DNA of 64,000 nucleotides, taken from a virus. The notes under the pieces are model-generated. The model ran no database searches. It was not told the DNA's origin and saw only the letters and a program-made list of their open reading frames with translations. Numbering within the stretch: position 1 is the first letter of the stretch; each line of letters begins with the position of its first letter. The stretch spans positions 1-64,000 of the IMG/VR virus record IMGVR_UViG_3300020048_000062, one strand, 5' to 3'. Positions 14,060-58,984 of the stretch are shown here, in pieces. A program made the translations under genes and the position numbers.

Positions 14060-14134
14060 TAGAATGTATTTATAGGTAACAAATCTTTTCAAAACTTTAA
14101 CAGTATTTATAAAAAACTATAATAAATTATAAAA

Positions 14135-17024: not shown

Positions 17025-20000
17025 TTACTTAAAGAATTTTGGCATAGCCACTTTTAAATATGGTGCAGGGTCAACTGCCACTCCATTGACAATATATTCA
17101 AAATGTAAGTGATTTCCACCATTTCTTCCTCTACTTCTTCCTTCATGTCCACAAAATCCAACTACTTTACCTGCTGCCACATGTATGCCATTATCTGTTT
17201 TGGGGTCGAATGCGAAACGAACCATGTGACCGTATTTGGTTTGTGTCCCATCATCGTGTTCAATTGTCAATAATGTTCCATATCCCTGTGAAGGAACTTT
17301 CATTATAATCTTACCAGCTTTCGCTGCCCAAATCGGTGTTCCCAATGGTGCAGCAAAGTCAATCCCACCATGACTTGGACGTTCAGATGGACGAAAGCGT
17401 GTTGTTACTGTCGTAACATTCGAGTCGATTGGTGCATCTAATTGTGTTTTCAACAACGCAACAATCGCTGGTGCAATACCAGAATAATTTCTATTAACTA
17501 AATTTGGATTAGGTGAGTTGGATGGAGTAAATCCTGCATTAACATTGTTATTGTATGCATCAGCTGCGCCTGTAACATATTCACCAATACTACTTCCATC
17601 AAATCCCATGACAGCAACTGAACTTAAAACTCTTGGCACGGGGTATTTCAGAATCTTAGTACCAGTAAACGAAGTTGTCATTTTATTAGCAGTAAGGTCG
17701 TGTTCGACAGATAAAATTAAGTATGCACCATTATATAATGGTATATTATCTAATTGAAAATATTGAGTGGGTTGTATCATAGCGTTTCCCAAACCTGTTA
17801 CAGTTGCACTATATGCACGATTTTCATAAAGATTGTATAAGTTCTGTGCCTTTTGAACTGGTGCATTTGTTTTTTCATCACCAGCCATCCTTGCAAGAAT
17901 TTGAATTGATTCATTTGTCTCTGGAAATTCTTTGCTATCTATTTTTATGTTGGTAAACATTGATTGATTCTGCTGACCAAATTTCACATTAAATGCTTTT
18001 ACCGATTTCCAAGGAAAGTTGGGATATGCACCATATTGAACATCACTTGGGTCTAATTCAGGTATATTTAATTCCAACTCCCTAACGTCTGTCATACCAT
18101 CGCTAATAAATCCACTCTTTTGACCATTAATATTACTTGGATAGCTTGAACTACCACCCACATACATACATACAAATGCTTCCATATATTCAGACTCATT
18201 TGAAACATCTATTTGGAAAGTTTCATCCCATGAAGTACGTGTATGATTCATAAAGTTTTGTAATGGAAAGAATAAAAAATGATTTAATGATAATAATTGA
18301 GAGAGCACCGTAAAAATACTAACATCTGGATTATCAAGCAAATTAATTAATATTTCGGGATTAATGATTGTATTACCAATTGGATTCATAGTTCTATCTA
18401 CAAACACAAAATTATCTATTAAATGTCTACCTGCTCGATTATAAGGATATCCAGTTATGTTTCTATTTGGACTCGTCATCCACTTATCATTAATATTTTT
18501 AAACGAATAGTACATTTGTGAAACAATATCCTTATCACCCAATGCTTTTATTTGTTCAACTTTTTCATTTTCCCTTGTTTTTTTCAAATCGCCAATTAAC
18601 CTAAATAATTCCTTTAGAAATGAAATGAAAAATTCGTCAGCACATTTCTTCTTAAGCTTATTGGTGTCAGAAACATTCTCAAGATTATTAGTACTAATCA
18701 AAGCCTTCAATGTTCTATACTGAGTATCATTAAAAAATGGTTTTAGTTTAAATGTGTTTTCAGAATAAATTACCAAATATTGTTTATTTAACAATACTTC
18801 AAATATATAGCCAAAATACCCACCTTGATTAAATAAGTCCTTAAACGCCACCAACCTTGCGTCAGCAGTTGGGAGATTTTGATCAATTACTAAGTCATAT
18901 ACATATTTAAGTCTATCTCGCATTGTGATGAAAGAGGCTGTATATATAAAGTCTTCAAATGTGATTACGAAAAATTCTTTATCTATTGCAGATAAATTAT
19001 TAATCACATCGTAATAATCTGCAAATACATATAATCCACCATCATTAAACACATTTAATCCAGATGTGGGTGACGCTGGTAGATATTTTTCGAAAAACGC
19101 TTCCAATCGTCCTAACATATTATTTTCCTTTGCGTAAATCAAACCACCAATGTATGCTGCGAGATAACTAGGTACTTCAACAACAGATGGTGTTTGACAA
19201 AGAAGCGGACCTATTTTACTTGGTACACCATTAAAGGGACTCATAGTTTTACCAAAGTTTGCTAATAGTATCATTGCAACAAATTCATAATCATTATTAC
19301 TTGGATCATTGAGTGCTGGCTTTAATCCCATATTAATAATATCAGTTCCTAATCCAATATTATGAGCAAATGCATTTGACCAAATAGACGTAATGTCTAC
19401 CATATGTTTTAATGGTGTATCGTCTGCTGCCCAATCAGTCAACCAGCTATTACTACCATGTTTATTAATTAACTCTTGATTACCACCAGCAAGTGCATCA
19501 TCTTTACTAACCTGCCAAACATCAAGTTGTTTTTTATTCATCCCTTGAATACCATTCTCTATTATCGCAAATCTTGTATTTGTATTAGAACTACCTTCAA
19601 CTCTATCTGCAACAAATATAACATTTTCGTTAGTGACAGCAAGTGATGTAAGCGGAATTAATTTATGATTATATATTATGTTATACCAATGTAATTGCAC
19701 ATCCTGTGCAAATACTTCAAGTATTTTAGTACCATCTTTTTCCAATGTTTGTACACCCATACCGTCTTTACTTGTAAGCACAGTACATCCACTATATTCA
19801 ATATCTCCTTTATTGATATATACACCATTTATTACCGTTCTACCTCCGCTACTGTAGCTCGGTACATCCCTACCATCAATATCTTTATAAAATGAATCAA
19901 TATTTCCAGATTTCTCATTTACCTGTATTTCAATTGCTTTAATAAGTTCATCATTATTTAATGTTAATGAAATATTCATTGCTTCTGACTTACTATATAA

Positions 20001-21887
20001 ATTACGATATGCAATACCTAAAGCACCATCATCAATAAAATCACTAGGTATTGCAAATTGAGATAATACATAATATCTATCTAACAAAACATTTACAATT
20101 TCATGCCAACTACTTTTCCCTTGATATGGTGAATCAACCAAATCTGGATTAACAGATGACGAATCAATTGGGGATATTGGAATCCAAAGATTGACGTTAT
20201 TTTCATCCTTCTGTTCACGTATTTCAAATGCTTTGATTATTTGTTTTTGCCTTTGGAAAGTATTAATAAAGTCATACACCAATTCCATTTCAGGCATCGG
20301 GTCTGAACTCAATTGGTTATTTAGCTGGATTGGTGCAATTCTTGCGCCATTCTCAATTACCAATGGATAAGAGAATATTTTATCAACAAAATCAGATTTA
20401 CTTCCACCAATGTAATCTGCAATTATTTTTTTATTTTTCTCGTGATGCACTTCTGCATCAAGTGAAGTAGACCTCATTGCATCAAAAAACATATCGACAT
20501 CATCCAATATCAACTTAAAGACATTATATATTGTTGGTGACATTCCAAGATGTTGTTCAATAGCATTATTTACGGTTATCGCAATATCTTGTGATAAAAC
20601 TTTTTGTTCATTAATTAAACTTGTTTGATTTTTATATATATTTATATAGTATTCTGTAATATCAAGAGCCACATAACCAACTGGAACTGCACTTAAACGT
20701 GCAGGAATTTGGCTAATATCGGTATTATTTGAGATTCTAACCCTTACAGCCTTATCATTTAACTTACTTTTATTATATGCATCCAATGCATTTATAAGCA
20801 TTGATTCAGCTAAATTAGTACCCCATTGACCATCAGCCACAGTTGTTGACACGTATCCAATATATAGTCTATTAGTAACCTCAAGAGGCTTAAAATCATT
20901 TCCTAAATCTATAATCGTTGAATTATATTCAGATAAACTTGATAGTCTCAACATCGGTCTAATATTCACATCAACATTACTCGGCATATCTGTTTCTATT
21001 GATTCATCAACAGTAAACATAAATGGTACACCTACATTGTTAGTAGTGAATTGGGTTGCAAAACTATCTAACATCTTAATTTCATCACCACTTTGTAAAA
21101 GTAGTTTCATATTATTATCATACTTTGTAGTATCCGAATTGGTTTGAGCATCTTTATTTAACGCAGTATATAAACTCTTAAGTTTCAATATAAATTGAAA
21201 TGTATGGTTAGGTGCAATAGTTGGGTCGGGACTAGCAGTTGCACCATTGTTAATTAATAATGGTGCATTGACTGCATACCTAAATAATACGTCAGTTAGG
21301 GGTGCAAATGTCATTGCAATAAACTGTGCATCTATTTCAAAATTACCATTTTCAGCCTTAAATTCTGTGGTGTACTTAACTAAATGAATATCATATTTCA
21401 ATGCCCTACCATAATATCCCTTAATTGTTAAAGTAAAGATAGGTGGTGGAAAATCAAAGAAAATCCTATATTTCGAATCTGTTTGATTAAAAAATGACAA
21501 TCCCCTGATATCTACAAACTTAATGTTTATAACTGGTACATATGATGAATTTATTGTTACTTTAATGTTCGTTATTCCAAATGATTCAAACATTTCACTA
21601 TTTTCACCAACACTCCCATCGTAATAATTACTGGTGAAGTTCAAATAGTTTGGGTCACCATTTTTATCGTTTTGATTGTTGCCGATGAAATTAACAGTTA
21701 CTTCTTTATCGTTGGAACTACCTTCATTAACTGTAAGTACAGTTCTGCCCTTTCTCTTTGCTGTTAATTCAGCAAATATGTGCATGTCTTGATATTGAGC
21801 AACTGCATTTTTCATGTCAGTGTTAATATTCACATCATTTGGGTCAATAAGTTGAACTGTTGTCGTTCCAGCATTAGCATTTGCCAT
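17025..21887 (-). CDS. Large baseplate hub-like protein with C-terminal M23 peptidase
   Basis: C-terminal HGGIDFAAPLGTPIWA...YGHM...HLHFE (M23). YSATVTGLGNAMIQPTQYF...GAYLILSVEH resembles a hub/late-control-D C-terminus; late motif at 21903-21910. Confidence 0.75.
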   Translation of the reverse strand: MANANAGTTTVQLIDPNDVNINTDMKNAVAQYQDMHIFAELTAKRKGRTVLTVNEGSSNDKEVTVNFIGNNQNDKNGDPNYLNFTSNYYDGSVGENSEMFESFGITNIKVTINSSYVPVINIKFVDIRGLSFFNQTDSKYRIFFDFPPPIFTLTIKGYYGRALKYDIHLVKYTTEFKAENGNFEIDAQFIAMTFAPLTDVLFRYAVNAPLLINNGATASPDPTIAPNHTFQFILKLKSLYTALNKDAQTNSDTTKYDNNMKLLLQSGDEIKMLDSFATQFTTNNVGVPFMFTVDESIETDMPSNVDVNIRPMLRLSSLSEYNSTIIDLGNDFKPLEVTNRLYIGYVSTTVADGQWGTNLAESMLINALDAYNKSKLNDKAVRVRISNNTDISQIPARLSAVPVGYVALDITEYYINIYKNQTSLINEQKVLSQDIAITVNNAIEQHLGMSPTIYNVFKLILDDVDMFFDAMRSTSLDAEVHHEKNKKIIADYIGGSKSDFVDKIFSYPLVIENGARIAPIQLNNQLSSDPMPEMELVYDFINTFQRQKQIIKAFEIREQKDENNVNLWIPISPIDSSSVNPDLVDSPYQGKSSWHEIVNVLLDRYYVLSQFAIPSDFIDDGALGIAYRNLYSKSEAMNISLTLNNDELIKAIEIQVNEKSGNIDSFYKDIDGRDVPSYSSGGRTVINGVYINKGDIEYSGCTVLTSKDGMGVQTLEKDGTKILEVFAQDVQLHWYNIIYNHKLIPLTSLAVTNENVIFVADRVEGSSNTNTRFAIIENGIQGMNKKQLDVWQVSKDDALAGGNQELINKHGSNSWLTDWAADDTPLKHMVDITSIWSNAFAHNIGLGTDIINMGLKPALNDPSNNDYEFVAMILLANFGKTMSPFNGVPSKIGPLLCQTPSVVEVPSYLAAYIGGLIYAKENNMLGRLEAFFEKYLPASPTSGLNVFNDGGLYVFADYYDVINNLSAIDKEFFVITFEDFIYTASFITMRDRLKYVYDLVIDQNLPTADARLVAFKDLFNQGGYFGYIFEVLLNKQYLVIYSENTFKLKPFFNDTQYRTLKALISTNNLENVSDTNKLKKKCADEFFISFLKELFRLIGDLKKTRENEKVEQIKALGDKDIVSQMYYSFKNINDKWMTSPNRNITGYPYNRAGRHLIDNFVFVDRTMNPIGNTIINPEILINLLDNPDVSIFTVLSQLLSLNHFLFFPLQNFMNHTRTSWDETFQIDVSNESEYMEAFVCMYVGGSSSYPSNINGQKSGFISDGMTDVRELELNIPELDPSDVQYGAYPNFPWKSVKAFNVKFGQQNQSMFTNIKIDSKEFPETNESIQILARMAGDEKTNAPVQKAQNLYNLYENRAYSATVTGLGNAMIQPTQYFQLDNIPLYNGAYLILSVEHDLTANKMTTSFTGTKILKYPVPRVLSSVAVMGFDGSSIGEYVTGAADAYNNNVNAGFTPSNSPNPNLVNRNYSGIAPAIVALLKTQLDAPIDSNVTTVTTRFRPSERPSHGGIDFAAPLGTPIWAAKAGKIIMKVPSQGYGTLLTIEHDDGTQTKYGHMVRFAFDPKTDNGIHVAAGKVVGFCGHEGRSRGRNGGNHLHFEYIVNGVAVDPAPYLKVAMPKFFK

Positions 21888-22589: not shown

Positions 22590-23291
22590 ATGAGCAAAAT
22601 ATTACAAGCTGGTGAAAATGGGTTCGGTATATTAATCGAACACGATGCAGGGTATCTAAACAGCGATTTAAATCCAATGTTTATTAATGAAGCGTTTGAG
22701 CTTAAACCAAATGAGCCTGTTTTAGTTAACTGTATTTTACAGAAGTGGGGTGTAAAGAATAAAAATGGACGTATCTATCCAAAAGACGTTTTAGTTCCAC
22801 AGGTTGCAGCATATCAGCTATTAGTTGACTCCAATAGTGCAGTATCGGAAGCCGATCATCCAGACAGTAGTATAATTTCCTTACAGAATATTTCACACAT
22901 GGTTACTAAAATGTGGTGGGGTAAAGGTGAACAAGAAAACGTTTTATATGGACAGCTAAAAATAATTGTAAGTCAAGGTTATATTAAATATGGTGTAGTT
23001 TCAGTAGTGGGTGACAAGATTGTTCTCTACATGCAAAACAAAATAAGATTAGGTATTTCATCACGTGGTGTTGGTACATTGAAAGAAATCCAAGGTGAAA
23101 ATCTTGTTCAAAATGACTTCGAACTAATTGGTTTTGACTTGGTTAGCACACCAAGCACCCCCGGTGGTTATTTGTTTCCTGACCAAAAAGGTGACACTTC
23201 TTTTGGTGAAAGTTACGTACAAAAGAACGGAATTTTCTTAAAAGAAGAGGAAAATAAGATTATCTCAGCTACTAATAGGTTTCTATTGTAA
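22590..23291 (+). CDS. Prohead core protease (T4 gp21-like)
   Basis: KNKNGRIYP, EADHP, ISH, LGISSRGVG, FDLVSTPS. Confidence 0.93.
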   Translation: MSKILQAGENGFGILIEHDAGYLNSDLNPMFINEAFELKPNEPVLVNCILQKWGVKNKNGRIYPKDVLVPQVAAYQLLVDSNSAVSEADHPDSSIISLQNISHMVTKMWWGKGEQENVLYGQLKIIVSQGYIKYGVVSVVGDKIVLYMQNKIRLGISSRGVGTLKEIQGENLVQNDFELIGFDLVSTPSTPGGYLFPDQKGDTSFGESYVQKNGIFLKEEENKIISATNRFLL

Positions 23292-23411
23292 GGCTGTCAA
23301 TATAAACATAATTAACGAAAGAGGCAACAATTTTATAAAAAATAATGCTTTTTGCTAAAAATTATGTATTTATATAAAAATTATAGTAGTTAATACCATA
23401 TTTTTAATACC

Positions 23412-24938
23412 ATGAAAGACGAAAAAAAATCATCAATAATAAAAGAAGCTTTAATTGACTACAATACAATTGCGGAAGCTGCTGCTGATAATGCTAAAAA
23501 AAGATTAGCAACAGAGTTTCCAAATAGCTTTACGAAATTGTTGAAAGAAGAATTAAATAATAAAAAAGCAAAAGAGTCATACAAGAAAATTGACGATGCT
23601 CAAGAATCTGATAAGGATAAGACTAAATTAAACAAAGAATCTGATATGAAGAATCAAGTTAAAGAGACCGTAACGGTTACAAACACAGTTGGAAAAGGTG
23701 AACCCTTCGACCAAAAAGCCAAAAAAGTACAGGAAGACGTAAAAGTTACCAATACTGTTGGCAAAGCAGACCCTTTCACTGAAAAGAAAAAAGGTGCTGT
23801 AAAGATTGAAGAAGAACGTGAAAAGGAATTTATGGCTGACGTTGAGAGTGATACTCCCAACCAAGGTAAAGGCGAACTTGCAAAAGGTGTTGCCTTCAAA
23901 GAAAAAATTAAAGCTCCTACAAGCGGAACACCAATGACTAACTTAAAAGAGACTTTTGACTTATCAGGACTTGATATGGGAAGCGTTGAAGAAGGATTGG
24001 ATAATGCAGGCGAAGACGACATGATTTCGATTGACGAAATCGAACAGGAAATCGCTAACATGGAAGGAAGTATGCAAGAAGAAATCGGTGGAATGACTGG
24101 TTTACCACAAGATAAAGCCGCTGGCTCACCAGCAGGTCAAGGTGGAGACGCTTTCAACCAGAAACTTATTGCCATGAGAAATGAACTTGATGAAATGATT
24201 AAGGGCGTAACTGGTGGTAGTTCAGAAGAAGAAGCATATCCAGAAGTAGAAGCTCAACCAGAAAGTTCACTATACGAAGACGAAAACATCACTGACGATG
24301 ACATTAATAATGTCTTAGGTGGTGGTTCAGAAGCTCCTGTAGATGAACAATTAGGTGTGTCACACGCAACCAACAGGAACATGACAGCTTCATTACCGGG
24401 GAACGATTATGTTAGTCCTCAGCAACTTAGCAGGAGACGTGAAGGTTTGCAAGAAGGTATTAAGATTGGTAGTTTAATTGAAGAAAACAAGAAATTGACT
24501 AAGAAATTAAACGAAGATAAGAAATACAAACAGTCTGTATCAACTTTAGTTGAACAGTACAAATCTGCACTCGAAAAGTATCGCAATCAATTGAAAGAAA
24601 TGGCAGTATTTAATACTAATTTGGCTCACGTTAATAATTTATTGGTAAACGAAAGCTTGGCATTAACTCAAGACGACAAAATTAAAATTATCAATGGTTT
24701 TAAAACCGTTGGTAGCATATCTGAATCACAAGAAAAGTACACTTCGCTACTTACTGAAATGAAAGGCGCAAAGAAAACTATTAGTGAAAGCATTGTGGAC
24801 AAAGTTACAACCTCTGTACAGCCATCCTCAAAGCAGAAACTTGATGAAGTTGTGGAAAAAACAGCCTATGCAAATAATAGCCACATTCAAAGAATGAAAG
24901 ACGTTATTAATTTGATAGAAAAAAGAGGAAAAAAATAA
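23412..24938 (+). CDS. Prohead scaffold/core protein (gp22-like position)
   Basis: Acidic coiled coil between protease and MCP; many L/I-x-E sites. Confidence 0.75.
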   Translation: MKDEKKSSIIKEALIDYNTIAEAAADNAKKRLATEFPNSFTKLLKEELNNKKAKESYKKIDDAQESDKDKTKLNKESDMKNQVKETVTVTNTVGKGEPFDQKAKKVQEDVKVTNTVGKADPFTEKKKGAVKIEEEREKEFMADVESDTPNQGKGELAKGVAFKEKIKAPTSGTPMTNLKETFDLSGLDMGSVEEGLDNAGEDDMISIDEIEQEIANMEGSMQEEIGGMTGLPQDKAAGSPAGQGGDAFNQKLIAMRNELDEMIKGVTGGSSEEEAYPEVEAQPESSLYEDENITDDDINNVLGGGSEAPVDEQLGVSHATNRNMTASLPGNDYVSPQQLSRRREGLQEGIKIGSLIEENKKLTKKLNEDKKYKQSVSTLVEQYKSALEKYRNQLKEMAVFNTNLAHVNNLLVNESLALTQDDKIKIINGFKTVGSISESQEKYTSLLTEMKGAKKTISESIVDKVTTSVQPSSKQKLDEVVEKTAYANNSHIQRMKDVINLIEKRGKK

Positions 24939-24967: not shown

Positions 24968-26638
24968 ATGGGATTTTTAATGGAATCAGCCGAAGTTGGT
25001 AATATAGGCTTAAAACAATTACGTGAACAACGTGAAATTACCACTAACCGTTGGGAAAAAATCGGTTTGTTAGAAGGACTTGATGGTAACGTTAAAGAAA
25101 ACTGTGCGCAGTTGTTCGAAAACCAGTTATCACACATGCTTAATGAATCGTCAGATTCATCAAACTCAGGTCAGTTCGAAACTGTAGCATTCCCTGTTAT
25201 CCGTAGGGTATTCGCTAAATTGCTTGCTAATGATATCGTATCAGTACAGGCTCTTAACCTTCCTATTGGAAAGTTATACTACATCAACCCTAAAACATCT
25301 GTAAGGGTAGCTGGAAGTGGTGTTCAAGCTGGCATGGACGTTCATACTTCACCTAACGGTGCTTATGGCAATGCTGCAACAAACGCAAATCCAACACAAT
25401 TCGAAACACGTTCATTGTATGATTCATTTTATGCAACTGAATATGCACAAGAAGGAACATCTTTATTTGACCGTTCAAAAGGACAAATGAGCATAATCAC
25501 TGGCGCAACAACTGGTGCATCTTATACTTATGGCGATAAATTCGTACAGGTAGTTATCCACGGCTTCTTAGTAAGCGATAGCGGAAAATTAGTAGGACCT
25601 GCTGGTGTTCAAATGGATACCGAATCATTCCTTGCTGGTTTAAAAATTAGTTCAACTGTAGATTTAGTAGCACCTGCTGGTTTTACCGACCAAAACGTTA
25701 CTGCTGGTACAGCTTTACCTTTCAACGTAAAGGTTCAGAAATACGGACAAGCAATTGTTGACAAATCAGGTAATATTACACTTGTTGTTGATATTCAGTA
25801 CGCAGGTACTAACGGATACCAACCATTAAGCGCAGTTACCACACCTGCATTCAACTTCGAATACAGAGCTTATAGTGACCTTGAAGAAGACTCACAGATG
25901 GCAGAAGTTACCTTCCAGTTAGACCAAGTAACTGTTTCCGTAGAAACACGTAAAATGCGTGCTATGTGGACTCCTGAACTTGCTCAAGACGTTAGTGCTT
26001 TCCACAACATTGACGCAGAAGCTGAATTAACCGCTTTGTTATCAGAACAAATGGCAGCAGAAATTGACCGTGAAATCCTTCGTGACTTACGTAGGGGTGC
26101 AGCTTGGACAGCACGTTGGGACTATAATGGTCTTCGTAGACAGTCTAACACCTATTACGGAACACAGAAAGACTGGAATCAGACTTTGATTACGAAAATT
26201 AATCAGATTTCAGCACAGATACATAAAGCAACACTTCGTGGTGGTGCAAGTTGGGTAGTTGTATCCCCAGAAGTAAGTGCAGTATTCGATGACCTTGAAT
26301 ATTTCCACGTTAGCAACGCTTCACCTGAACAGGATAAGTATAACATGGGTATTGAAAAAATTGGTACTTTAAGTGGACGTTACCTTGTGTATCGTGACCC
26401 TTACTCACCAGCAAACACAATCCTTATTGGTCATAAAGGAACAAGTATCTTAGAGACCGGTTACATATACGCCCCATACGTTCCAATGCAGTTAACTCCT
26501 GTAATGTATAACCCATTCGATTTCACACCAATACGTGGTATCATGACTCGTTATGCTAAGAAAATGGTACTCAACCGTTACTACGGTAGAATCTATTGCG
26601 ATGGTCTACAGACTTTCGGAATTGGTGACTTACAATAA
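24968..26638 (+). CDS. Major capsid protein (T4 gp23-like)
   Basis: FPVIRRVFAKLLANDIVSVQAL, TRKMRAMWTPELAQD, HNIDAEAEL, GYIYAPYVP, FTPIRGIMTRY. Confidence 0.96.
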   Translation: MGFLMESAEVGNIGLKQLREQREITTNRWEKIGLLEGLDGNVKENCAQLFENQLSHMLNESSDSSNSGQFETVAFPVIRRVFAKLLANDIVSVQALNLPIGKLYYINPKTSVRVAGSGVQAGMDVHTSPNGAYGNAATNANPTQFETRSLYDSFYATEYAQEGTSLFDRSKGQMSIITGATTGASYTYGDKFVQVVIHGFLVSDSGKLVGPAGVQMDTESFLAGLKISSTVDLVAPAGFTDQNVTAGTALPFNVKVQKYGQAIVDKSGNITLVVDIQYAGTNGYQPLSAVTTPAFNFEYRAYSDLEEDSQMAEVTFQLDQVTVSVETRKMRAMWTPELAQDVSAFHNIDAEAELTALLSEQMAAEIDREILRDLRRGAAWTARWDYNGLRRQSNTYYGTQKDWNQTLITKINQISAQIHKATLRGGASWVVVSPEVSAVFDDLEYFHVSNASPEQDKYNMGIEKIGTLSGRYLVYRDPYSPANTILIGHKGTSILETGYIYAPYVPMQLTPVMYNPFDFTPIRGIMTRYAKKMVLNRYYGRIYCDGLQTFGIGDLQ

Positions 26639-26744: not shown

Positions 26745-28247
26745 ATGAAAAAACTAATCTACGGTAATACAATCATATTGTTTCTAGGAATTAACGATAT
26801 GATAACGCTTAAAAATGGAGAAATAAAAAAAATAAAGGATGATTATTTATTATTGTATCAAAACTGCATAATATACAATTATTTTGATTTGAAGAACCAT
26901 AAAGCAGTGATAAGGGATAGAATAAATAAATTGAAATTTAAAGATCAAATTATTGTGCATGCAAGAAAGTGTAATATTACACACATTGATACTCTATTGA
27001 AGAATAAATTTTTGAATGAGAATCATATTCAAGGCACTGATAAGTCACAGATATTTTATGGTGCATATTTTAATAATGAATTAATTGCAGTAATAAGTTT
27101 TGATGATAATATGGGAATGAATGGGGGAATTGGTGAAAATGAATATAATTTATCGAGATTTTCAATTAAATTTGGATACGTGATTAGTGGTATTTTTAAT
27201 AGAATGCTTAAAAGTTTTATTAAAGATTATTCCCCTAGAAAAATCTTATCATTTGCTGATTTAAATTTTGTGAATAGGGATAAAAATATATATGAAAATA
27301 ATGGTTTTAAACTTGGAAAAATAATTAGACCCGATTATAAAATATTTCTAAAAAATAAAGAAGAGTTATACCATAAGTTTACATTTGGTAATAAGTTCTT
27401 AAATAACATTACTTTATCTAATGATGAAAAACAATTAATTAAAGATAATATGATTAAGGTTTGGAACTGTGGTAAGCTCAGATATGAATTATTTATCAAC
27501 AACGACAATCATATACTTTATGGGTATATATATGCTATAAAAAACAATGTTAATGGTAAAATATATATTGGTCAAACAACGAGAACTTTAAATAAAAGAA
27601 TTTGGGAGTATAAAAGTGCCTATAATAGAAACATTTTTTACAATAAATATTTGTTGAATTCCTTTAATAAATATGGTTGGGATAATTTTGAATTTTCCAT
27701 TATTGACACAGCAATTAATTTGAGCGAACTCAACAATAAAGAAATTGAATATATCACGAAATACAATTCCAATAATAAAGAATTTGGATATAATATTGAA
27801 TCTGGTGGTGGAAATGCCATACCAACTACCGAGACATTAGAGAAAATGTCTAAATCACATTTAGGAATTAAGCAAAATGAAAGATGGATTAACAATAGGG
27901 TCGCTAAAGCAGGGACAGATGATGCTAAGAAATATGGTAGGGAAAAAACAGAAGAAGAAAAACTACAATTAAGTGCAACATCACCTAAATTCTGGCAGGG
28001 TAAAGTACGAGATAAAGAAACTAAGGATAAAATAAGTAAAACTAAGTTAGAGAATGGTATGTCAATCAAACAAAAAGAAGTGTTGTGTAAAAGTGTGTTG
28101 AAGATAAATGTAACCACGAATGAAACATTAAACACATATGAATCAACTGCACTCGCTTCTAAAAATGAAAATGTAAATCAATCTACGATATCCAGATGGT
28201 GTTCTAAAAATAAAATCATAAATAATGTGTTGTGGAAATATAAATAA
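26745..28247 (+). CDS. Free-standing GIY-YIG homing endonuclease with N-terminal acetyltransferase-like domain and NUMOD tails
   Basis: ARKC...FLNENHIQG...LSRF...SFADL...IYENNGF; then YGYIYAIKNNVNGKIYIGQT...GYNI; NUMOD3/NUMOD1-like C-terminus. Confidence 0.75.
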   Translation: MKKLIYGNTIILFLGINDMITLKNGEIKKIKDDYLLLYQNCIIYNYFDLKNHKAVIRDRINKLKFKDQIIVHARKCNITHIDTLLKNKFLNENHIQGTDKSQIFYGAYFNNELIAVISFDDNMGMNGGIGENEYNLSRFSIKFGYVISGIFNRMLKSFIKDYSPRKILSFADLNFVNRDKNIYENNGFKLGKIIRPDYKIFLKNKEELYHKFTFGNKFLNNITLSNDEKQLIKDNMIKVWNCGKLRYELFINNDNHILYGYIYAIKNNVNGKIYIGQTTRTLNKRIWEYKSAYNRNIFYNKYLLNSFNKYGWDNFEFSIIDTAINLSELNNKEIEYITKYNSNNKEFGYNIESGGGNAIPTTETLEKMSKSHLGIKQNERWINNRVAKAGTDDAKKYGREKTEEEKLQLSATSPKFWQGKVRDKETKDKISKTKLENGMSIKQKEVLCKSVLKINVTTNETLNTYESTALASKNENVNQSTISRWCSKNKIINNVLWKYK

Positions 28248-29105: not shown

Positions 29106-30602
29106 TTAAATTGCTTCTGGTTCTTCATCCGTCCATTCATGGTCATATATAAGTTCCAGACGACTTCTCGTTATAGCTACATACTCCAAGTTCTTTTCTT
29201 GTATTGCTTGCCATCCACGTTGATTAGGTAAAGGCATTAAGTCTGGTCGAACAATAAATACTCTATCAGCTTCCAAGCCTTTGATTTTGTGAACGGTACT
29301 CAATACAATACCCTGAATATCGTCACTGAATATTGTTCTAATTTTGTCCTTAAGGTCTTGAATCGTATTTGCAAATCCTGCTAAGAACAATAAAGTACTT
29401 ACTTTGTCTTCAAGTGCGGAATATCCACTATGTTCAATTGGATTTAGAACACCACTGGCTTTTAAATCACGCCTGAATGTAACTAATTCACGTTCCCAAA
29501 ATCTCTTGAGTTCTGGAATGTTATTAATTTTCCCAATTAGCTCAATTAGGTGTAGTCCAATGTCAGAACCTTTAATAGTAGCTTTCTTATTTTGCATGAG
29601 GAACTCAAAGAAAAGTTTTACAAGAGGCATTGTTGTCCTACAAAGAACAAAATCTCCACTCTCCGCTTCTGTGAGAACATCACCATTCCTAACCAATCCT
29701 TCTGGTGCGCTATCAAGTGCCTTTATGTCGGGGACAATTTCATTTGCTTTCCTAATAACAGCTTTCGAGCATCTGAATGAAACAGATAGTGGTAACACTT
29801 TTGTATTTGGAAATTTCTCAAACCATTCGAATGATTTTTCATCAGCAGCAGTAAATCCATAAATTCCTTGAAAGAAATCACCCACTGAAATAAGTCTACC
29901 TGTGATTTTACCTGAGAGTTTATCTTTTTTCAATATCTTCTCAATGATTTTAATCTGACAACGGTTTAAGTCTTGAACTTCATCCACGAAAACATAGTCC
30001 TGCGGAAACATCCAAATACTATTATCAATAGCAGGGAGATAAATCATATCAGTATAATCCATCGTTTTCCTGTCATTGGTTGCATCATCAAGAATTTTGA
30101 GTACTCTCTTAATGTCCTTGTCTTTACGTAGGTTAATATCGTATCTTTCAGCTACATACGGTATGTATTCAGCTTTTAACGTTAAGGTCAATCTACAGAG
30201 ATTCACCAATTTTTTTAAGGAGTTCATATATATTGACATTTCTTCGTCATTATCGAACTCTTCATCGAGTTTCCACGATTTGGCTTTCTTCTGAATGAGT
30301 TTATCGAGCTTAAATTCATCAAACTGAATGCTATCACCATATTTACGTTTAACAGCAGACATACCTAATCCATATGTAGTGTAACAACGAGTACCCTCAT
30401 TTAGTTTAGTCTTAAGGTCCTCTTGAATATGTTTATTGAAGGCTAAAAAAAGTACTGATTTATCTTTGGGCAACATCTTTGAACATTCAACAATTGTTGA
30501 ACTCTTTCCACATCCAGCAAATGCTTTTATTAAAATATTTTCTGGTCTTTTTTTAATGAATGTAAATATTCTCTCTTGTTCGGCAGTTGGTTTAAAATTC
30601 AT
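29106..30602 (-). CDS. UvrD/Rep-like SF1 helicase
   Basis: AFAGCGKS, LAFNK, FVDEVQD, VGDFFQGIYGF, SFRCS, STVHKIKGLE, YVAITR. Confidence 0.92.
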   Translation of the reverse strand: MNFKPTAEQERIFTFIKKRPENILIKAFAGCGKSSTIVECSKMLPKDKSVLFLAFNKHIQEDLKTKLNEGTRCYTTYGLGMSAVKRKYGDSIQFDEFKLDKLIQKKAKSWKLDEEFDNDEEMSIYMNSLKKLVNLCRLTLTLKAEYIPYVAERYDINLRKDKDIKRVLKILDDATNDRKTMDYTDMIYLPAIDNSIWMFPQDYVFVDEVQDLNRCQIKIIEKILKKDKLSGKITGRLISVGDFFQGIYGFTAADEKSFEWFEKFPNTKVLPLSVSFRCSKAVIRKANEIVPDIKALDSAPEGLVRNGDVLTEAESGDFVLCRTTMPLVKLFFEFLMQNKKATIKGSDIGLHLIELIGKINNIPELKRFWERELVTFRRDLKASGVLNPIEHSGYSALEDKVSTLLFLAGFANTIQDLKDKIRTIFSDDIQGIVLSTVHKIKGLEADRVFIVRPDLMPLPNQRGWQAIQEKNLEYVAITRSRLELIYDHEWTDEEPEAI

Positions 30603-31548
30603 TGTTTGTTTGTTTAAATTGATTACTATTGGGTTGTTTCATGTGTAAACATATTTCATTAAGCCAATTATTTTTATGTGCCGAATCATATGCCGAAGAT
30701 GATTTCACGTGAAAATCATTTCTTTTATCATATTTAAATGCTTCATTTTTACAGTTTTCATATGTCCAATAATGTATTGGTTTTACGATTTCTATCATAT
30801 GTGAACAAATTTCATTAAGACAATTATTTCTTCGTGCAGCATTATATGCCCCACAAGAATTTTTTTGAAATTCACCTCTCGTACTATATTTCAAGGCTTC
30901 TTTTCTAAGATTTTCAAAATTCCATTTTGACAAATTACCACCCAAGCCACCACCTTTTATTCTATTTAGTAAAAACCATTTATTCTTTCTATATTCATCA
31001 ATAAAAAAAACTTCTTTAGTTGCAGCATCAGATTCATCAATTGGTATATTGACTAACATTTTTAAAGTTGGACTTAATTGAGTTTTTCTAATGTGGTTTA
31101 AGACTGCCGAATTAGCAGAACCAATTAATCCAAGATGAACATTACTTCTTCTGGTCACATTGTATGTTAAACCCACATATACGTGATTATCAGTAAATTC
31201 GAATGCATATAAATATCTTTTTTTATGTAGTTGGTTTGTTGACATGTGTGAGCATATTTCATCAAGCCAACCATTTTTTCGTGCAGCATAATATGCACTA
31301 CTGGAATTTTCAATGAATTTGTTCCTACATTGATATTTTAATGCCTCTGCGTGACACCTATCCAACATCCAATAATTTGGTGGATTTATAACTCTTACCA
31401 TATGTTGACACAATTCATCAATCCAACCATTCTTAATTGCCTTGTTATATGCACTTGGTGACCCACATTTAAATTCATTTCTAGTATTATACATTAATGC
31501 TTCCTCACTACAAGCATCTTTACTCCAATAATTTGCAGATTTTTTCAT
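30592..31548 (-). CDS. GIY-YIG-like endonuclease flanked by four ~44-aa repeats
   Basis: YLYAFEFTDNHVYVGLT...RR...H...E...LN; repeat (Y/K)W-x3-C..EALKY..R.EF....SAY..A.KNGWLDEICSHM twice on each side. Confidence 0.7.
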   Translation of the reverse strand: MKKSANYWSKDACSEEALMYNTRNEFKCGSPSAYNKAIKNGWIDELCQHMVRVINPPNYWMLDRCHAEALKYQCRNKFIENSSSAYYAARKNGWLDEICSHMSTNQLHKKRYLYAFEFTDNHVYVGLTYNVTRRSNVHLGLIGSANSAVLNHIRKTQLSPTLKMLVNIPIDESDAATKEVFFIDEYRKNKWFLLNRIKGGGLGGNLSKWNFENLRKEALKYSTRGEFQKNSCGAYNAARRNNCLNEICSHMIEIVKPIHYWTYENCKNEAFKYDKRNDFHVKSSSAYDSAHKNNWLNEICLHMKQPNSNQFKQTNNEF

Positions 31549-53618: not shown

Positions 53619-54497
53619 CTAATCTTCGTAGAAGTCTACTTTCTCAAAGAAGTATATCTCCTTAAACGGCTTTATCGCAATTCGTATTTCCTTTGTTGAA
53701 AGATTTGTCTGTTCTTTTAAAAATAACAGTATTTTATTCTTTGCAAACTTGTTTGTCACTCTTTTATTGAACTTTCCATCGGGACTATCTTCCATAAACA
53801 ATATGTGCCAATTTTTTAACACATTTATAATAGCATCACCAACAACAATTTCATTTTTCTTCATTGAAGTATCACCATCGATTTTTGTTTCGATTTTGGC
53901 AATGACATTGTTAATTAGTTTTTCAAGCTGATGTTGTGTTTCCAATTCCAATTCATAGCTATAATCAATATTTTCATTAATTTCGTCAGCATAATCATCA
54001 AATGACAGGTTTATCTTTTTTTCACTATAACTTTTTCTACCATGGTCTTTATAGTAATTTCTAATAATTGTTTGACAATAACTAAATGCTTTTGAAATGA
54101 ATATTCTATACTCGTAACCATCACACTCTTTTATTATTGACTGTAGTTTTTCTTCTGCATCTTCAACATAAATAAATCTATATCCATCACCCAACTTAAC
54201 CCATTTATCAACACCACCACCCATACGTTCAATAATGAATGGTCTGTACTTAATCATATGCTCAATTAAGTGTGTCAACGCATTTGATTCAACTTCTTCC
54301 ATATCATAGTTTCCTATATATATGGGATATCGTCTTAATATGGTTTCCTTCATTTTTCGAAAGGGTTCGATTAAAATCTGATTATAAATTTTATTCTTTT
54401 CTTCGAGTGAATTTGATAGAATATAATCTAAAACTGCCTGCTCTTCCCTTTCTGCAAAATATGGTGTACAACTTTCACTTTCTTTTTCTTTCATCAA
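53619..54497 (-). CDS. Late-transcription sigma factor (T4 gp55-like)
   Basis: YF..REEQAV..Y; I...F.KM.E.I; KAFSYCQTIIRNY resembles the gp55 region-2 motif (NPFAYFTQI-like). Confidence 0.7.
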   Translation of the reverse strand: MMKEKESESCTPYFAEREEQAVLDYILSNSLEEKNKIYNQILIEPFRKMKETILRRYPIYIGNYDMEEVESNALTHLIEHMIKYRPFIIERMGGGVDKWVKLGDGYRFIYVEDAEEKLQSIIKECDGYEYRIFISKAFSYCQTIIRNYYKDHGRKSYSEKKINLSFDDYADEINENIDYSYELELETQHQLEKLINNVIAKIETKIDGDTSMKKNEIVVGDAIINVLKNWHILFMEDSPDGKFNKRVTNKFAKNKILLFLKEQTNLSTKEIRIAIKPFKEIYFFEKVDFYED

Positions 54498-55346: not shown

Positions 55347-56528
55347 TTATTTACTTGGTTCGTAAGGTATTGTTTCAATCTGTGGTACTGCTGGTGCTGC
55401 TGGTGTTAATGCACCTTGAAGTAAGGCGATACGTGCGTCAATATATGACTGGTAGATAGCCTGTAAGCTTTTTTCTGCTGCTTCCTGAGTGTAGTTTGAA
55501 ACTACTTTATCCATTGATTCATACAATGCTGACATAATGCTATCATCCAAGAATTTGATAAGTACTTCGCCAGTTAATGCAGGTAAATCATAGAAATTGT
55601 CAGTCCAAACGCCAGCACCTTCAACCACTTTAGTTACAACACCATTTTCGTCTCTTTCAAGCATATAGTCTGGCATGATATCTGGTTTAAGTGCAATTGG
55701 AACAGTGCCCACTTTCATACATTCTAAAGGAAATGTGCCAAAGCTTGCAATCCTGTCAACCCAAACGGCTGCGAAGTTACCTGATAACCTTTTTGCAAAG
55801 TCAACCCTACGCATAGCTTGTGGTGGTTTTGATTTTGTAAGCATTGGGTCAAACGTAACCCAACTGTATTGTGGAAACCTGCTAAAGAAAAGTTTAACAA
55901 ATTTCGAAATTTCATTTGCGTTCCTACCAATAACAGAAATGATTGGTTTCTGTGGAATTGCTGACTTCTGAAAATATTCAGGAATACCGATATTGTATGT
56001 ACTAATATTAAATTTATTCTGACCGTAGAATGTTTCAATCCATTCCTTCAAAGTTTGTGAAGTTGTGATAACATCACGAATACCAAAGGATGCCCAATCA
56101 GTACCGGGAATCAAGCTATTTACCATGTAATCAACAGATTGCATTATACCAACCCTTATACAAGGTAAGTTTTTAGTCTGCTCCATTACGTTGGAATATA
56201 CTTCGGGAATAAGCATTATGTCCTCAGGTCCTACCGTCAACTTAGGGTCGGCAATCGACATATGTTTGTGATTTGTAAGTTCTTTTTCAATCCATGTTGG
56301 TGGGATATAATCTCCACGTTCAATCAATACAGTTACGTCATAACCCATATTTTTCATGATAGTTGCATGAAAATAAAGTTCATATACGCTTGCACTTGGA
56401 CTCTGTGATTCTGGTATGCAAACTAAGAATTTTGATTTCTTATTCACAAGTTTATCTAAAGATACTTTAATCTTTTCGATTTGTTCTAATTCAGCTTGAT
56501 TTACTGCTGTATCTAATACTTCACTCAT
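55347..56528 (-). CDS. GT-B fold glycosyltransferase-like protein
   Basis: IPEVY, SFGTFPLECMKVGTVPI (E-x7-E-like region, first Glu replaced). Confidence 0.7.
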   Translation of the reverse strand: MSEVLDTAVNQAELEQIEKIKVSLDKLVNKKSKFLVCIPESQSPSASVYELYFHATIMKNMGYDVTVLIERGDYIPPTWIEKELTNHKHMSIADPKLTVGPEDIMLIPEVYSNVMEQTKNLPCIRVGIMQSVDYMVNSLIPGTDWASFGIRDVITTSQTLKEWIETFYGQNKFNISTYNIGIPEYFQKSAIPQKPIISVIGRNANEISKFVKLFFSRFPQYSWVTFDPMLTKSKPPQAMRRVDFAKRLSGNFAAVWVDRIASFGTFPLECMKVGTVPIALKPDIMPDYMLERDENGVVTKVVEGAGVWTDNFYDLPALTGEVLIKFLDDSIMSALYESMDKVVSNYTQEAAEKSLQAIYQSYIDARIALLQGALTPAAPAVPQIETIPYEPSK

Positions 56529-56533
56529 ATCGT

Positions 56534-56938
56534 TTATTGTTTTTTATATTTTTCTATTATTATGTTTGCTGTGTCGGCAGTAAATTCTGCTTCCCAATCA
56601 ATTTCAGTCATAAAAAGTTCAACTTCTAATGATTTCAATACTGGAAATCTATCAACCAATATCTGATTTATTTCGTTAAAATCTAATTCGGTTGAAACAT
56701 CAACACCATTTACTACTCTATAAATCAAAGGAAATATTATGATTTCATGTGATTCATGAATATTTTCATCTTTTAATTCTTCTTTTGCTAATAGAAGTTC
56801 CATCGCTTCTTCATAAAGTAATGCACACTTTAATTTTTTCTCGTCATCTAATTGTAATAAGAGTCCAACTTTTTCCCATTTACCGACAACATCATTGTCT
56901 GGTTCTACATTTTTAATAAATTCTGAAATACCACTCAT
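56534..56938 (-). CDS. 'Mini-capsid' protein homologous to the MCP N-terminal region and spine helix
   Basis: KWEKVGLLLQLDDEKKLKCALLYE..IIFPLIYRV vs MCP RWEKIGLLEGLDGNVKENCAQLFE..VAFPVIRRV; EIDWEAEFTA vs MCP NIDAEAELTA. Confidence 0.75.
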   Translation of the reverse strand: MSGISEFIKNVEPDNDVVGKWEKVGLLLQLDDEKKLKCALLYEEAMELLLAKEELKDENIHESHEIIIFPLIYRVVNGVDVSTELDFNEINQILVDRFPVLKSLEVELFMTEIDWEAEFTADTANIIIEKYKKQ

Positions 56939-56943
56939 ATCGT

Positions 56944-57684
56944 TTATTGTTTTTTATATTTAATTATTTTTTCGAACTCTGGACTTTCAGTTAAATCATT
57001 AATCTGTAGTACTTCCAATGAGCCAGCTTTTATGTTTTCGTTGTATGGTCTCTTAAGCTTAACAAGCTTTTTGCCCCAAGGTGTGCCAAGTGTCAATATC
57101 TCAGGGTCGGTAGTGATTAATATGTCAATATCGTCCCACATTTCAGTTGCTTTATCGACAAACTTAATGTTTTTAAACCTAGCAGTCATCCTACTTAAGA
57201 AAAACAATGTAGAAGGTATACTAAAACGATTTTCAACTGAAAATAAAGTAAATTCAACATTCTCACCATATTTTAACAAGAAGTTATTTACATGTAAGTC
57301 CATGCCTTTATACATGATTGGTGCGCTGGCATGAATTTCAAAACAATAGTCTTCATACAAGAAACGATTGTAAACTTGTCTCGCTGTTAGTCTAACTTCT
57401 TCTTCTTTCTTAAATAAGAATATATCAGCAGGTGCTTCTCCCAACTTTTCATCGTGCTGATAATAAATTGGATTAATGTTTTCTGGCATATCTTCTGGTT
57501 CTTTCAAATCCTTGATGATTTCCACAGTATCTTCAAACTTATAGTGCTTAAAGAAGTCGTAAACGTATGGCTGTTCAGGAACACCTTCCTCGCCAAATTC
57601 TTGTGCATAGAATCTATCAAATTGAAGCCATTTTGCCCTGAAAACTTCATTAATGTCTATACCTACTTTTAATTTTTTACTCAT
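56944..57684 (-). CDS. HAD/5'(3')-nucleotidase-like protein (degenerate DxN motif)
   Basis: KVGIDINEVFR, TLFFL, DILIT.DP, RPYN. Confidence 0.6.
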   Translation of the reverse strand: MSKKLKVGIDINEVFRAKWLQFDRFYAQEFGEEGVPEQPYVYDFFKHYKFEDTVEIIKDLKEPEDMPENINPIYYQHDEKLGEAPADIFLFKKEEEVRLTARQVYNRFLYEDYCFEIHASAPIMYKGMDLHVNNFLLKYGENVEFTLFSVENRFSIPSTLFFLSRMTARFKNIKFVDKATEMWDDIDILITTDPEILTLGTPWGKKLVKLKRPYNENIKAGSLEVLQINDLTESPEFEKIIKYKKQ

Positions 57685-58859: not shown

Positions 58860-58984
58860 GTTACATTTATATTTATAAAATTATTTACTCCATATAAGCT
58901 TATACGTTAAAAAATAAATTATCTTGAATTTTAAACAAAATAAATTTTGTCGTATTTATGAAAAAATATAAAAATTTATAAAAC

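Follow-up and report, generated by a model that had tools for sequence, protein, structure and literature searches.

A T4-like phage carries a small accessory gene for a truncated, stand-alone paralogue of its own major capsid protein

The major capsid protein (MCP) of bacteriophage T4, gp23 (Pfam PF07068; PDB IDs 6UZC, 7VS5 and 5VF3), has an N-terminal region that faces the interior of the prohead, where it is probably in contact with the scaffolding core; A66D, A94V and G97S, three mutations affecting capsid length, lie in this region (PMC9546572). Later, the region shifts to the outside, where it forms the N-arm and the N-fist (PMC9546572, PMC9958956). The first quarter of gp23 binds EF-Tu, and the Gol part of the protein, defined as a 29-residue region with a 20-residue core, lets the Lit protease cut EF-Tu (PMC3014915). 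MCPs directly trigger both CapRel and Lit (PMC9712102).

The classical paralogue of gp23, the T4 head vertex protein gp24 (PDB ID 1YUE), is kept beside the MCP as a full HK97-fold structural subunit of the shell and is encoded in the head module. The T4 internal proteins carry a propeptide-like leader that ends in a cleavage site and is followed by the protein proper, and the T4 prohead protease cleaves according to the rule (L/I)-x-E. CpmB of SaPI and Sid of P4 are small proteins that reuse or imitate the capsid-scaffold contact and thereby compete for it, and the poxvirus protein K3L is a mimic of eIF2-alpha that blocks PKR, i.e. a short, one-domain copy that occupies the binder of the original. 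CpmB and Sid are satellite proteins that either imitate the scaffold or build a cage around the outside, and K3L is a copy of a host protein made by a eukaryotic virus; in the case reported here, by contrast, a phage copies the capsid side of the contact, and the capsid protein is its own. In the literature we found neither a description of such stand-alone capsid-copy genes nor a case of a phage copying its own capsid protein.

The DNA analysed (the window) comprises 64,000 nucleotides of a 98,937-bp IMG/VR record (IMGVR_UViG_3300020048_000062) that is estimated to be ~30% complete. It contains a T4-like head module with a portal, an S77 prohead protease (22590-23291), a 508-aa gp22-like homologue in the scaffold position (23412-24938) and a gp23-type MCP of 556 aa (P0002; 24968-26638, plus strand), which matches the Pfam Gp23 model with an E-value of 1e-73 as well as the structures of T4 gp23, and from which the elements described below were copied. 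The head module is interrupted, between the portal and protease genes, by an ORF on the opposite strand (17025-21887, minus strand) for a protein of 1620 aa that has an M23 peptidase domain at its C-terminus. Relatives of the MCP at >80% identity sit on contigs of 300-372 kb, some of them with terminal repeats, and the phage therefore belongs to a clade of T4-like phages that are huge and uncultured; among cultured phages, the nearest MCPs, those of Microcystis phage Mel-JY01 and of the Flavobacterium 'immuto' phages, are only ~40% identical. The MCP is >80% conserved over its 120 closest database relatives, with an N-terminus that is nearly invariant in 20 aligned relatives, whereas the scaffold homologue is far more variable (56% vs 84% for the MCP). 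Two genes resembling GIY-YIG homing endonucleases lie around the region just downstream of the MCP gene (26745-28247, plus strand, and 30592-31548, minus strand); such genes near the MCP gene could promote partial duplications of gene 23.

The gene under study (56534-56938, minus strand) encodes a 134-aa protein (P0001, hereafter the mini protein). The Pfam Gp23 model does not match it at E-values up to 1. The original prediction, made from the DNA letters, was that its N-terminus aligns with the MCP of the same phage, and this was borne out in three comparisons. BLASTP aligned residues 20-75 of the mini protein with MCP residues 28-81 (39% identity, E 3e-9); a profile built from 28 family members recovered the MCP N-terminus, with an E-value of 1.5e-19, when the record of this phage was searched in all six frames; and hhalign paired mini protein residues 16-83 with MCP residues 24-89 over 66 columns (98.5%, E 2e-15). 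The similarity is thus significant in the profile searches, on which the prediction had been made to depend. The matching MCP segment (residues 24-89, encoded at 25037-25234, plus strand) covers the propeptide helices, a putative protease site (LNE/S) and the first helix of the N-arm, which bears the motif ...ET.iFPii.RV. In the HMMER alignment of the MCP with T4 gp23, the shared motif FP.I.RV (FPVIRRV in the MCP) corresponds to T4 residues ~93-102, and T4 A94 and G97 fall on MCP V73 and P76, inside the motif that the mini protein retains. The helices that precede the motif match the T4 propeptide in position, with weak sequence support (1.8 bits). At the position homologous to the LNE/S site of the MCP, the mini protein has no conserved (L/I)-x-E.

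The FP.I.RV motif had also been equated in the original prediction with the Gol region and, through it, with activation of Lit. In the alignment with gp23, FPVIRRV falls on residues ~93-102. The likeness of the mini protein stops after ...FPLIYRV, at about the first 9-10 of the 29 aligned residues, i.e. only about the first third of the Gol-aligned region is kept and the mini protein does not contain Gol as such; the case for a link of the mini protein to Gol and Lit is weak.

The C-terminal match between the mini protein and the MCP was not detected by BLASTP. The family profile, however, gave a second, collinear match at MCP residues 346-376 (E 0.002 in the genome search, conditional E 5e-4), which HMMER found in 121/121 related MCPs tested and which was also present in five complete related genomes. 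In an hhalign comparison with the C-terminal sub-alignment of the family, mini protein residues 108-126 paired with MCP residues 343-361 with 86% probability and a score of 35.5, whereas 150 column shuffles of the same comparison gave a mean of 10.0 (sd 1.7) and a maximum of 18.4. This MCP segment (25994-26050, plus strand) is the start of the spine helix, which begins at residue 350 in the MCP model, and carries the invariant motif I-D-A-E-A-E-L; its counterpart near the C-terminus of the small proteins is the conserved [IV]-D-x-E-A-E-[FL]. The mini family thus has a homologue of the motif at the start of the spine helix (H-x-[IM]-D-A-[ED]-A-E-L), in a match that is short (19 columns). The near-invariant residues of the small family, W21, G25, P70, D114 and E116, are distributed over both segments and correspond to invariant MCP residues W29, G33, P76, D349 and E351. 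The C-terminal element thus lies ~265 aa further along the MCP, close to the ~270 aa proposed, and the proposal that two non-contiguous MCP elements were kept and the rest dropped agrees with our data: what remains are helices of the propeptide and the N-arm together with the first part of the spine helix. In some MCPs, HMMER extended the C-terminal match back to '...YRVYSDLEED...', a weak hint that an internal deletion may have joined ...FP.I.RV to the strand that precedes the spine helix.

AlphaFold2, supplied with the family alignment, predicted the mini protein to be a compact six-helix domain (pLDDT 89, pTM 0.81) with helices at residues 13-23, 32-55, 64-78, 87-96, 98-108 and 115-133. About 35 diverged residues connect the N-terminal helices with the first turns of the P-domain spine helix (ID.EAEF), the whole being predicted as one domain. 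The model is all-helical and does not show the A-domain and P-domain structure of an HK97 fold. Neither the A domain nor the insertion domain is present, and the P-domain sheet and the E-loop are missing as well, so that the protein is unable to build a shell. The model of the MCP was poor (pLDDT 43) and no solved structure contains the gp23 propeptide, so that the comparison was limited to helix positions. Helices of the MCP model (up to residue 32, 41-61, 70-87 and 350-387) agree in position with the aligned helices 1, 2, 3 and 6 of the mini protein. Superposition on gp23 had been suggested as a check; in its place stands this agreement of helix positions, with the pLDDT-43 MCP model as reference. 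Foldseek and VIA-align gave no informative match. A Foldseek search of the PDB with the mini protein model found nothing, a search of BFVD returned a single match, an uncharacterised 166-aa Myoviridae protein (TM 0.65), and a wide VIA-align search of 48,161 chains gave a top Z of 6.2, which is at noise level for helical proteins. No member of the family had a relative in Pfam, PHROG or PDB, and profile searches of the PDB yielded only chance-level matches to Csm2 and Sys-1. The residues conserved between the mini protein and the MCP may constitute the core of the fold rather than a common binding surface.

Compared with gp23, the mini protein has homologous segments, the same invariant residues and helices at matching positions. 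It differs in length (134 aa, against the 556 aa of the MCP of the same phage), in being encoded outside the head module, in being accessory and in evolving fast. Compared with gp24, it is likewise an MCP paralogue, but a fragment that could not take a position in the lattice. T4 itself holds a small counterpart that copies a different piece of gp23: residues 2-38 of gp61.1 (NP_049649, a hypothetical protein of 54 aa) align with residues 57-93 of gp23 (46% identity, E 9e-10). Gene 61.1 (L106:4967-5131, minus strand) lies beside the primase gene 61, and gene 23 at L108:1330-2895. Like the gene for the mini protein, gene 61.1 is a small uncharacterised ORF outside the head genes with a copy of a piece of the phage's own gp23. 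In contrast to the mini protein, gp61.1 copies the maturation site and the start of gp23*, has no spine-helix element and shows no detectable sequence relation to the mini family.

The mini protein is one of a family of small proteins, put at 110-230 aa. An exhaustive phmmer search of 1.84 billion cluster representatives retrieved 30 proteins at E<1e-3, all of 59-229 aa and most of them matched over nearly their full length; none of the 30 was of MCP length. Searches with P0001, P0014 and P0008 by tblastn against the GenBank phages (50,697 records) gave no family match, and the family is consequently known only from metagenomes. Megablast of the locus against the GenBank phages and scans of IMG/VR with P0001, P0004 and a 354-aa protein encoded elsewhere in the window also gave no match. 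A second paralogue of 125 aa (P0154; 37971-38348, minus strand) is present in the window and matches the family profile over its full length (E 7e-10). It is more diverged, having lost the RR of FP.I.RRV and kept W..GLLE and INVEAEF, and it is located between a HAD-like hydrolase and the 354-aa protein just mentioned, which has no assigned function, in an operon with KTSC, dUTPase and thymidylate synthase genes.

The 5' end of gene 23 has supplied captured pieces on more than one occasion. Forms of 189-207 aa carry an extra copy of the MCP N-terminus ahead of the mini domain, and this copy is nearer to the MCP (~59% vs 41% identity over 34 residues, hand count). These forms keep I-N-E where the MCP has L-N-E and, by analogy with the T4 cleavage rule, I-N-E is likely to be a protease site. 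Two further ORFs carry only the N-terminal module of 35-40 aa: a 102-aa ORF with a putative coiled coil in its N-terminal half (G004; L103:4775-5083, ~650 bp from the MCP gene) and a 181-aa ORF (G012; C1:33711-33869). Both are near the MCP gene, at a place taken in the window by a GIY-YIG endonuclease gene. On another contig, the metagenome contig that encodes the 207-aa double form, the upstream 246-aa homologue (L104:481-1314) has a 30-residue extra tail containing ...LTEWEKLGIMES...; the tail looks like the remnant of another mini-gene start fused on.

The genomic setting shows the gene to be an accessory cassette in a recombination hot spot. It is flanked upstream by a gene for a 246-aa protein (56944-57684, minus strand) and downstream by one for a 393-aa protein (55347-56528, minus strand), both of unknown function. 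Eighty IMG/VR loci share the gene order PhoH, 95-aa, 246-aa, 393-aa, GT2, 292-aa. In ~73 of the 76 loci with both flanks, the 246-aa gene and the 393-aa gene lie within 8 bases of each other and the slot between them is empty; it holds a family member in four places only, namely the window and loci L006, L105 and L104. In the nearest relative (L006) the allele is 34-39% identical and the flanks 85-91%, DNA identity collapsing exactly at the gene borders; the L105 allele shares 68% identity, and the L104 slot is occupied by the 207-aa double form. In two other loci, L014 and L044, the 246-aa and 393-aa homologues are separated by unrelated short inserts (gaps of 225 and 381 nt, respectively), which marks the junction as a hot spot for insertions in general. 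Elsewhere, family members occur at other positions, 0-2 per record, and they are absent from two of the five complete genomes.

In the window, two exact copies of a 30-bp direct repeat (0 expected), 410 bp apart, enclose exactly this one gene. The downstream copy (56522-56551) and the upstream copy (56932-56961, at the junction of the 246-aa ORF and the mini gene) each comprise the last codons of one gene (KYKKQ), its stop codon, 5 nt and the ATGAGTG of the next gene, and relatives with an empty slot have a single junction of the same form. Both the 246-aa gene, which ends in ...EKIIKYKKQ in the 16 loci examined, and the mini family have KYKKQ as their native tail; the repeat would therefore permit clean gain and loss by recombination. 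KYK endings occur in only 3 of 54 ORFs, and we discarded the idea that they serve as a common C-terminal tag.

Selection on the gene was estimated by comparison with the L105 allele. The dS of the mini gene (0.72) equals that of its flanks (0.73-1.1), while dN is about five times higher (0.21 vs 0.04), giving a dN/dS of 0.30 for the mini gene and 0.04-0.05 for the flanks. We concluded from these values that the gene is functional yet fast-evolving. What the ORF encodes is a shortened paralogue of this phage's MCP that stands alone, is mobile and under selection, and retains two elements from the inner surface of the shell protein.

With regard to the time of expression, the octamer GTATTTAT occurs in 29 copies in the window (6.8 expected), mostly 20-45 nt upstream of structural genes and in the same orientation (for example, at 14103-14110, 23366-23373 and 58952-58959). 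It is likely to be the late-promoter element of this phage, unlike the T4 element TATAAATA. On the minus strand, GTATTTAT is absent from 53572 to the start of PhoH, i.e. from the whole PhoH-to-o292 operon that includes the mini gene, which agrees with the claim that the gene has no late promoter; it is also absent directly upstream of the operon of the second paralogue. Sigma-70-like matches occurred at chance level only. Judged solely by the missing motif, early or middle expression of the mini gene is plausible. The claim that the gene lies upstream of a late sigma factor found no support, as the neighbour in question, a 292-aa ORF (53619-54497, minus strand), has no match in Pfam, PHROG or PDB. 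This ORF is conserved in all syntenic loci.

The original prediction offered three roles for the protein, an immune decoy, a regulator of head assembly and an inhibitor of rival phages, and all three are compatible with the evidence. In general form, we consider it slightly more likely than not that the mini protein mimics the N-terminal domain of the MCP and acts by competition. Because its operon lacks the late-gene motif, the protein is probably present before the MCP is made. It would then, as a soluble protein, imitate the N-terminal domain that faces the interior, a surface that the MCP itself would show only before and during assembly, and would compete for a ligand of that domain. Our best explanation overall, which we put forward tentatively, adds a host factor as the preferred ligand, one that binds or senses newly made MCP, so that the mini protein would counter capsid-triggered defence, either as an antagonist or as a decoy that does not set it off. 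EF-Tu is a candidate partner, since it binds the first quarter of T4 gp23. This host-directed version is possible, and we hold it somewhat more loosely than the general form; we favour it because a sensor of the invariant MCP N-terminus could not easily be escaped, because the copy is patchy in distribution, fast-changing and re-captured, and because it is located outside the late genes. An accessory, fast-evolving and re-captured gene appears to fit an arms-race mimic better than a core assembly factor. A faithful mimic of the trigger could, on the other hand, switch the defence on instead of blocking it.

The mini protein might instead modulate or poison head assembly by taking the site of the MCP N-terminus on the scaffold or the prohead protease, thereby tuning the timing of assembly or the size of the capsid of this 300-370 kb phage, or blocking the heads of a co-infecting relative. 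We regard such a role, the main rival of the decoy, as rather unlikely, although several observations agree with it: the probable contact of the gp23 N-terminal region with the scaffolding core and the length mutations located there (PMC9546572), the equivalents of A94 and G97 inside the FP.I.RV that the mini protein keeps, and the near-invariance of the MCP N-terminus, owing to which one mimic would suit many related phages. The variable scaffold (56% vs 84% for the MCP) could drive the fast evolution of the gene. However, a gene that is missing from two of the five complete genomes and from most of the syntenic loci is dispensable for building capsids, it is placed outside the late modules, and a poison would strike the phage's own assembly too, because the MCP N-terminus is invariant.

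Alternatively, the fold may have been exapted for an unrelated job, such as MazG-like nucleotide metabolism or transcription with a sigma region 2-like domain, in which case the MCP ancestry would be history only. In a feature-based protein atlas, clusters of the MazG/PRA-PH type were reached at 0.87, under the lead threshold of 0.9; the second paralogue sits between the HAD-like hydrolase gene and that for thymidylate synthase; and several sigma region 2 chains were found at Z 4-5. Nevertheless, none of the 28 members matched a MazG-type Pfam family (MazG, PRA-PH or dATP-dGTP_PPHyd) at E-values up to 1, and the acidic positions required for an EExxE...ExxD metal site are not conserved, which led us to reject a MazG-like identity. 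The best 50 of the 48,161 chains in the fold search included no MazG chain, although absence from that list does not by itself speak against a fold family. The likeness to sigma region 2 was rejected as well, as Z values of 4-6 are at noise level for helical proteins. That MCP N-termini have been captured afresh speaks for selection on the likeness as such, and exaptation to an unrelated job is improbable.

It is a little less probable still that the mini protein is a packaged internal protein, whose N-terminal module would dock onto the scaffolding core in the manner of a capsid-targeting sequence and be trimmed by the protease, and which would be ejected with the DNA and act early in the next cell. 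The 189-207 aa forms do look like such a protein in layout, with what resembles a full MCP propeptide ending in the conserved I-N-E, then a short linker, then the mini domain, and T4 gp61.1 copies gp23 57-93, across the maturation site; the first residues of gp61.1 presumably resemble the T4 capsid-targeting leader. P0001, however, is without the conserved (L/I)-x-E at the homologous position, and its gene has no late motif upstream. We also rejected the N-terminal module as a general targeting tag, since each genome has, besides the MCP, only 0-2 small ORFs carrying it.

That the gene is a decaying, functionless remnant of a partial gene 23 duplication, as its patchy distribution and the flanking repeats that would permit clean loss could suggest, is hardly credible in view of the dozens of diverged members with intact ORFs and conserved motifs, the dN/dS of 0.30 at a dS of 0.72 and the confident fold (pLDDT 89).

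Returning to the host-directed decoy, its most extended form would be that this clade copies the conserved, hard-to-mutate N-terminal domain of its MCP into a small early gene, the product of which blinds capsid-triggered defences, and that the gene is exchanged as a cassette and renewed each time gene 23 is captured again. Taken as a whole, this scenario is rather doubtful; if it is true, it would be the first phage counter-defence that acts through mimicry of the phage's own structural trigger. Bacterial immune systems are known to be triggered by capsid proteins, whose contacts in assembly leave little room for change. Should the mini protein be a soluble copy of a surface exposed before assembly, a phage's answer to that constraint, counter-defence or the control of assembly would gain a new class of agent, and structural genes a new route to accessory genes. 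The mini family offers a compact, confidently folded probe of 130 aa for binders of the T4-type propeptide and N-arm, whose contact no structure has yet shown, whether the partner is EF-Tu, a sensor, the scaffold or the protease, and gp61.1 of T4 provides a tractable laboratory entry to the copying of capsid fragments by phages.
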